41,323 bases of DNA, taken from Escherichia coli (GTDB lineage: Bacteria; Pseudomonadota; Gammaproteobacteria; Enterobacterales; Enterobacteriaceae). Positions 9,107-9,517 of this stretch are shown here, piece after piece. The stretch lies in assembly GCF_003334785.1 (NCBI RefSeq), contig NZ_QOWV01000025.1; one strand, written 5' to 3'. Under the pieces are notes generated by a model, which was not told the DNA's origin, ran no database searches, and saw nothing but the letters and a program-made list of their open reading frames with translations. Each line of letters begins with the position of its first letter. Positions within the stretch are counted from its first letter, which is position 1. The translations under genes and the position numbers were made by a program.

Positions 9107-9517
9107 ATGAGCATTATTAAAGAATTTCGCGAATTTGCGATGCGCGGGAACGTGGTGGATTTGGCGGTGGGTGTCATTATCGGTGCGGCATTCGGGAAGA
9201 TTGTCTCTTCACTGGTTGCCGATATCATCATGCCTCCTCTGGGCTTATTAATTGGCGGGATCGATTTTAAACAGTTTGCTGTCACGCTACGCGATGCGCA
9301 GGGGGATATCCCTGCTGTTGTGATGCATTACGGTGTCTTCATTCAAAACGTCTTTGATTTTCTGATTGTGGCCTTTGCCATCTTTATGGCGATTAAGCTA
9401 ATCAACAAACTGAATCGGAAAAAAGAAGAACCAGCAGCCGCACCTGCACCAACTAAAGAAGAAGTATTACTGACAGAAATTCGTGATTTGCTGAAAGAGC
9501 AGAATAACCGCTCTTAA
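9107..9517 (+). CDS. mscL: Large-conductance mechanosensitive channel MscL, 136 aa
   Basis: [33 protein letters not shown]... Confidence 0.97.

Follow-up and report, generated by a model that had tools for sequence, protein, structure and literature searches.

What binds the convergent genes mscL and arfA of Escherichia coli to each other, and does it matter that their coding sequences end on the same letters? Based on a 41,323-nt stretch of E. coli DNA (contig NZ_QOWV01000025.1 of assembly GCF_003334785.1; hereafter the window, in whose positions all coordinates are given unless MG1655 is named), on a comparison of related genomes and on published transcript data, we propose that the two genes form a convergent pair in which a conserved hairpin is the working element, the annotated arfA stop goes unused and mscL is repressed by antisense RNA, a reading that we consider highly probable. 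What functions here, and for both genes, is the hairpin and not the stop codons that they share.

The window is chromosomal, and its genes here follow one another in the order trkA (7601-8977, +), mscL (9107-9517, +), arfA (9514-9732, −), and then zntR and yhdN, both on the minus strand. The mscL coding sequence, found as an open reading frame and annotated by RefSeq, encodes 136 amino acids and closes with TAA at 9515-9517; its product is a full-length member of the NCBIfam equivalog NF001841 (residues 1-136, 284.2 bits against a cutoff of 225). The arfA ORF as annotated has 72 codons and a stop that is the complement of 9514-9516, and residues 4-45 of its product align with positions 2-43 of the 44 in Pfam model PF03889 (E=1.1e-25). 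A search of the NCBIfam HMM library at E<=0.001 returned no match for ArfA, whose identity was settled by Pfam; PGAP names arfA in every E. coli genome despite the lack of an NCBIfam HMM match, and this naming is presumably not HMM-based. The same coordinates are annotated by RefSeq in strain I3 and in K-12 MG1655 (mscL 3438024-3438434, arfA 3438431-3438649), and from the MG1655 annotation the two numberings were converted as window = MG1655 − 3428917. The arrangement of the mscL and arfA ends is also the same in the annotation of four divergent E. coli alleles, with identity down to 97.3%. Each of the 5426 complete genomes of E. coli contains the 851-nt region at 9000-9850, which is 100% identical to several strains; in strain ET5 (NZ_CP101014.1, 449698-451323) its equivalent is interrupted by IS1A near mscL. 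Directly after trkA stands a canonical intrinsic terminator (8979-9006, +), composed of a 12-bp stem and a 4-nt loop followed by TTTCCCTTT, so that the transcription unit of mscL is a separate one and begins beyond this terminator.

At the junction the sequence reads ...CGC TCT TAA CA..., with T9514, T9515, A9516 and A9517 making up a TTAA palindrome (9514-9517) that contains both stops. Two nucleotides (9515-9516) are common to the two stop codons and the coding sequences overlap by 4 nt. An earlier note on this DNA had described the two stops as sharing 2 nt, convergent and devoid of intergenic space, and on this point the sequence and the RefSeq coordinates agree.

A hairpin within the arfA coding sequence

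The hairpin is a 49-nt element of the arfA strand (9533-9581, −) that, judged from its inverted repeat (arms 9536-9554 and 9560-9578) and from folding, consists of a 13-bp outer stem, a C/A mismatch, an 8-bp inner stem and a 5-nt loop. The predicted fold has an energy of −28.7 kcal/mol (z = −6.1) on the arfA strand, and its complement on the mscL strand (9536-9578, +) one of −20.6 kcal/mol (z = −4.4). The structure is located inside the arfA ORF, beginning 16 nt past the mscL stop and upstream of the annotated arfA stop, as is the case for ArfA of the non-stop-mRNA type. At the hairpin base on the arfA strand and beyond it comes a U-rich tract, UCUUCUGCUUUC (9527-9538, −), with 7 T in 14 nt, the same as the mean across 81 sequences. 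An Rfam search of 8900-10300 at a permissive threshold returned nothing at the hairpin and gave three weak chance matches, near the trkA terminator only. The earlier note had called the hairpin the first stable structure that an mscL transcript encounters past its stop, and the plus-strand fold bears this out, the only earlier stem being weak and not conserved. This short stem, CGCTC/GAGCG (9509-9523, 4-5 bp), reaches across both stops and was flagged on the minus strand by a terminator-like scan; as an earlier structure or a back-up terminator it was rejected, given a fold of −2.8 kcal/mol (+) or −5.8 to −6.7 kcal/mol (−) and a mean z of −0.6 over 75 distinct junctions.

What does the hairpin do to the arfA message? 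According to the review of Abo and Chadani 2014 (PMC3989581), arfA mRNA is either cut by RNase III within the hairpin in its 3' coding sequence or ends just past the hairpin; the non-stop mRNA is handled by tmRNA, and the full-length protein, which carries a hydrophobic tail, is unstable. Ribosomes rarely decode the annotated arfA stop, because the mRNA is cut or terminated upstream of it. Two pieces of arfA, nt 166-189 and nt 190-219, are reportedly liberated by RNase III (Morra et al. 2023, PMC10070815), and in the predicted stem the published cuts (nt 165/166 and 189/190) lie one in each arm, staggered by 2-3 nt. When these products are converted to window coordinates, the stretch that yields active ArfA (codons 1-55, ending at the first RNase III cut) occupies 9568-9732 (−), and a 54-nt arfA-derived small RNA, cut further into 24 and 30 nt and antisense to the mscL 3' UTR, occupies 9514-9567 (−). 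In the RefSeq annotation of MG1655 this interval (3438431-3438484) carries the ncRNA gene yrdG (b4846, 'arfA-derived small regulatory RNA'); a literature search found no paper under the name yrdG. The arfA message normally stops at nt 165 or shortly beyond the hairpin, so that it lacks a 3' UTR of the ordinary kind and rarely extends as far as mscL. The locus thus has the features of the known regulation of arfA by RNase III and tmRNA (PMC3989581), namely the 72-codon ORF, the 3'-CDS hairpin, the remaining codons 1-55 and an unused hydrophobic tail encoded by the 3' arm of the hairpin together with the U-rich tract. On the arfA strand the hairpin would act both as RNase III substrate and as premature terminator, and ArfA of residues 1-55 would accumulate only when tmRNA is overloaded. 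The studies of Garza-Sanchez 2011, Chadani 2011 and Schaub 2012 are said to have treated arfA alone and not its neighbour mscL.

Conservation of the hairpin was followed in loci found by scanning species-representative genomes once with ArfA, and the best 80 of 183 matches were used. All of these best 80 of 183 loci are from Enterobacteriaceae, except one short contig resembling contamination. This 383-bp contig (NZ_CACSJJ010000125.1, 'Arthrobacter sp. 18067') carries a Raoultella-like arfA-mscL junction with an ArfA 87% identical to that of E. coli, and is most likely a contamination of the actinobacterial assembly. Among the best 80 of 183, every locus has a convergent mscL directly downstream of arfA, and every locus has a hairpin of 48 nt at arfA nt 153-200 that is free of indels; in 76 of the 80 the mscL stop follows the hairpin at a distance of 14-19 nt. 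Identity by codon position amounts to 0.93/0.95/0.64 at positions 1/2/3 over arfA codons 1-50, which reflects protein-coding constraint, and to 0.93/0.91/0.92 in the hairpin, where the absence of codon periodicity indicates that the constraint is on the RNA and not on the protein. Across the 64 different hairpin sequences, 97.8% of cells form standard pairs, compared with 44-65% when the partners are slid. Covariation is well supported at one pair (CG to UA in 25 sequences) and limited overall, as 11 of the 21 hairpin pairs never vary; in the 13-bp outer stem, 10 pairs are fully invariant and the other 3 vary only from GC to GU. The mean fold across species is −32.3 kcal/mol on the arfA strand and −29.6 kcal/mol on the mscL strand. 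Since all 80 species are Enterobacteriaceae, the fixed geometry may in part be due to shared ancestry rather than selection.

The 3' end of the mscL transcript

Where does the mscL transcript end, and by what means? The Term-seq data of Adams et al. 2021 (PMC7815308, supplement 1) contain a 3' end at MG1655 3438498 (+), detected with high counts in all three growth conditions; no other curated 3' end lies in the range from 3438000 to 3438699. It converts to window 9581, at the base of the hairpin, 3 nt past the plus-strand stem and inside the arfA ORF. The mscL 3' UTR is accordingly 64 nt long (9518-9581, +; stop +64), so that mscL transcripts continue beyond the stop at 9517 and finish within arfA as a cis-antisense 3' overlap. 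The same extent was used by Morra et al., who described mscL 3' UTR +1 to +64 as complementary to the arfA 3' CDS and cited it from Ju 2019 (PMC10070815). The earlier note had gone further and supposed that the 3' UTRs of the two genes are fully antisense to each other; this does not hold, as the mscL 3' UTR (9518-9581) faces arfA codons 51-72 and not an arfA 3' UTR. The mature mscL and arfA RNAs overlap essentially over the hairpin alone, and on the mscL strand the complement of the hairpin would form the 3'-terminal hairpin of the mscL mRNA. A 49-nt RNA from the mscL 3' UTR was reportedly described by Kawano in 2005; as a matter of arithmetic only, such an RNA would fit 9533-9581 exactly if it ended at 9581.

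With both RNAs ending at the hairpin, coupled termination, which the earlier note had raised as a possibility, could be explained by a shared bidirectional terminator, where polymerases from both genes halt, possibly via head-on collisions. The mscL end 3 nt past the plus-strand stem and the U-rich tail on the arfA strand are in keeping with such a device; moreover, the mscL 3' UTR extent used by Morra et al. derives from a bidirectional-terminator study (Ju 2019), and 146 of the 165 convergent E. coli excludons listed by ExcludonFinder have overlapping predicted terminators (PMC12288877). On the mscL strand, however, the stem is followed by CCUCCCAGUUCCCCC with no U-tract: the tail CCUCCCAGUUCC has 3 U in 12 nt and is U-poor throughout 81 sequences (mean 4.8 T in 16 nt). 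This is not the layout of a bidirectional intrinsic terminator, in which an A-tract before and a U-tract after the G+C-rich hairpin let either strand read as a hairpin with a U-tract. A consensus terminator scan likewise found no plus-strand terminator-like site after mscL, and a strong bicyclomycin-sensitive signal lies downstream on the same strand. On balance we regard a shared bidirectional terminator as unlikely, if worth keeping in mind.

A different route to the same 3' end is termination by Rho. A C-rich, G-poor stretch of 75 nt antisense to arfA (9575-9649, +; 27 C versus 9 G) resembles a Rho utilisation site and is a candidate Rho loading or termination region for mscL read-through. 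The bicyclomycin data of Adams et al. 2021 (supplement 2, PMC7815308) place the peak of a Rho region at MG1655 3438536 (+), which is window 9619 and 38 nt beyond the mscL 3' end; its Rho score is 5.8 (p=3e-28), and as the Rho scores are those of 800-nt windows, this plus-strand signal is coarsely placed and could instead reflect other antisense transcription ending across arfA/zntR. RNAs terminated by Rho are usually trimmed back by 3' exonucleases (PMC7815308). In the case of mscL, Rho would end transcription within the region antisense to arfA, and exonuclease would then trim the RNA back to the hairpin. Because the plus strand has no U-tract and because a C-rich stretch and a bicyclomycin-sensitive signal follow the hairpin, we infer that the mscL 3' end is likelier to arise from Rho termination and trimming than from coupled intrinsic termination; a 3' end 3 nt past the hairpin is also expected from a non-canonical terminator. 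The mscL transcript resembles the Rho-terminated mRNAs that are trimmed to a protective hairpin (PMC7815308) in the missing U-tract, the C-rich and G-poor downstream sequence and the bicyclomycin signal, but differs from them in that for mscL the mechanism is read from genome-wide scores taken over 800-nt windows. Neither 'Rho' nor 'termination' occurs in the text of Morra et al., where the origin of the mscL 3' end is not discussed (PMC10070815). That public 3'-end and bicyclomycin data favour Rho and trimming over coupled intrinsic termination for mscL is a mildly new suggestion. On the arfA strand a weaker Rho region is listed at MG1655 3438487, or window 9570 (−), within the hairpin (Rho score 2.5, p=1.7e-5; PMC7815308), and hints that read-through of arfA into antisense mscL is also limited by Rho.

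Could the hairpin be under selection on both strands, as an RNase III site and terminator for arfA and as a 3'-end protector and antisense target of a Rho-ended mRNA for mscL? We put this forward tentatively and think it rather unlikely. Selection on two strands would explain the near-invariant outer stem without codon periodicity, the position of the mscL stop 14-19 nt away and the fact that there is never a gap. If it does operate, Rho activity and translation termination on mscL would set how far mscL transcription invades arfA, and the antisense connection already published for osmotic and translational stress would gain a transcriptional layer.

Antisense regulation between arfA and mscL

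What are the consequences of the overlap for the two genes? The earlier note had also thought antisense effects possible, and these are borne out by the published experiments of Morra et al. 2023 (PMC10070815). Deletion of arfA raises mscL mRNA about 2-2.5-fold and doubles its half-life with mscL promoter activity unchanged, the chromosomal deletion having kept 70 nt of the mscL 3' UTR, and deletion of mscL raises arfA mRNA 2.6-fold at high osmolality (PMC10070815). Repression is restored only by arfA variants that keep nt 160-203, including that fragment alone in trans, and the mscL 3' UTR is cleaved by RNase III in vitro (PMC10070815). The 54-nt arfA fragment would pair with the mscL 3' UTR and roughly halve both the level and the half-life of mscL mRNA. 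Head-on collision of polymerases is unlikely as the mechanism of cross-regulation, since the mscL and arfA promoter reporters are indifferent to deletion of the partner and a plasmid-borne arfA fragment is active in trans (PMC10070815). In an rnc mutant mscL mRNA falls and does not rise (PMC10070815), which implies a second, arfA-independent RNase III effect and is left unexplained by the simple model. The antisense effect is modest, about 2-fold, and is a single-laboratory result. The main text of the p19 dsRNA-capture paper mentions neither mscL nor arfA.

An effect of this size invites the view that the overlap has no regulatory consequence, the 2-fold change being a side effect of how the strains were built or of expression from plasmids, and the hairpin mattering for arfA only. 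The rescue constructs were indeed multicopy, and the authors themselves flag possible artefacts of high arfA expression (PMC10070815); in addition, the E. coli hairpin is more stable on the arfA strand (−28.7 versus −20.6 kcal/mol), and the G-U pair at columns 4/48, which never varies, corresponds to a C-A mismatch in the mscL strand. Against this stand the rise in mscL mRNA and the doubled half-life upon a deletion made in the chromosome (PMC10070815), an mscL 3' end that coincides exactly with the hairpin at high Term-seq counts in three conditions (PMC7815308), an mscL-strand hairpin that is stable in all species (mean −29.6 kcal/mol) and the fact that at least half of the transcriptomes analysed independently reveal the pair as an excludon (PMC12288877). 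We find it quite improbable that the overlap is without consequence.

The literature already covers this gene pair, its hairpin and the truncation of arfA mRNA, as well as the mapped 3' end of mscL and the antisense regulation, and the K-12 annotation records part of it. The cross-regulated mscL-arfA pair described by Morra et al. 2023 (Life Sci Alliance, PMC10070815) is this very locus, without any biological difference; after conversion, the hairpin, the 64-nt mscL 3' UTR and the 54-nt fragment lie at equal coordinates. The pair is also one of the 165 convergent E. coli excludons reported with ExcludonFinder in 2025 (PMC12288877), with which it has transcript overlap, RNase III involvement and mutual down-regulation in common. 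It departs from them in the shortness of the overlap, essentially one hairpin, and in that arfA makes its own mRNA non-stop by means of the same hairpin, something excludons do not do in general. With a single hairpin serving two convergent genes, the locus makes a compact textbook example, and it ties the ribosome-rescue capacity provided by ArfA to the copy number of the osmotic safety valve MscL.

The overlapping stop codons

What remains for the shared stops to do? An intergenic gap is present in 0 of the best 80 of 183 loci; the coding sequences overlap by 0 nt, TGA being followed directly by TTA, in 36 of these 80, by 4 nt in 19, and by 6 nt (1 locus), 26-27 nt (9), 33 nt (2), 47-48 nt (6) or 65 nt (7) in the other 25. 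Among the same best 80 of 183, a distance of 216 nt from the arfA start to the mscL stop is always associated with an abutting TGA, and one of 215 nt, as in Escherichia and most Citrobacter, always with TTAA and a 4-nt overlap; two loci with distances of 203 and 209 nt have the 4-nt overlap too, and at other lengths the frame runs 6-65 nt into antisense mscL. The end of the arfA ORF varies because the length of the spacer between hairpin and stop sets the frame, and gaps are lacking because the hairpin lies within the arfA ORF and the mscL stop is only about 16 nt away from it. The arfA stop is placed wherever the frame first meets one past the hairpin, as nothing selects its position. In E. 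coli the frame would meet its stop in the TTAA formed with the mscL stop; in many relatives, with a spacer one base longer, the stop would be a TGA abutting TTA.

That the TTAA overlap is itself selected, for example by coupling ribosome termination on mscL to events on the arfA strand or by removing intergenic DNA, would suit the absence of a gap in 80 of the best 80 of 183 loci, the 55 of these 80 in which the arfA ORF ends <=3 nt from the mscL stop (36 abutting, 19 with a 4-nt overlap) and the retention of TTAA in all E. coli alleles inspected, but it is highly improbable, as the arfA stop is unused owing to truncation of the mRNA upstream (PMC3989581), seven or more overlap values that track spacer length occur among close relatives, abutting ends and 4-nt overlaps are each grouped in related genera and thus represent few evolutionary events, and the missing gap follows from the position of the mscL stop about 16 nt past the hairpin. 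As a selected feature the stop-stop overlap was rejected on the comparative data, with exact 2-nt sharing in only 19 of the best 80 of 183 loci. Non-random in these loci are instead the lack of any gap and the constant position of the hairpin. Exact sharing of the stops is best read as a by-product of the unused arfA stop and not as a working element. What is mildly new here is that the stop overlap emerges as one of several interchangeable states that move with spacer length. Across a wider range, Morra et al. found mscL and arfA co-located in 128 Enterobacterales genomes and distal in 154 others (PMC10070815). In their Supplemental Data 1, E. coli K-12 MG1655 and O157:H7 Sakai are binned as 'proximal' despite a 4-nt CDS overlap in RefSeq; the distance measure apparently misses very short overlaps.
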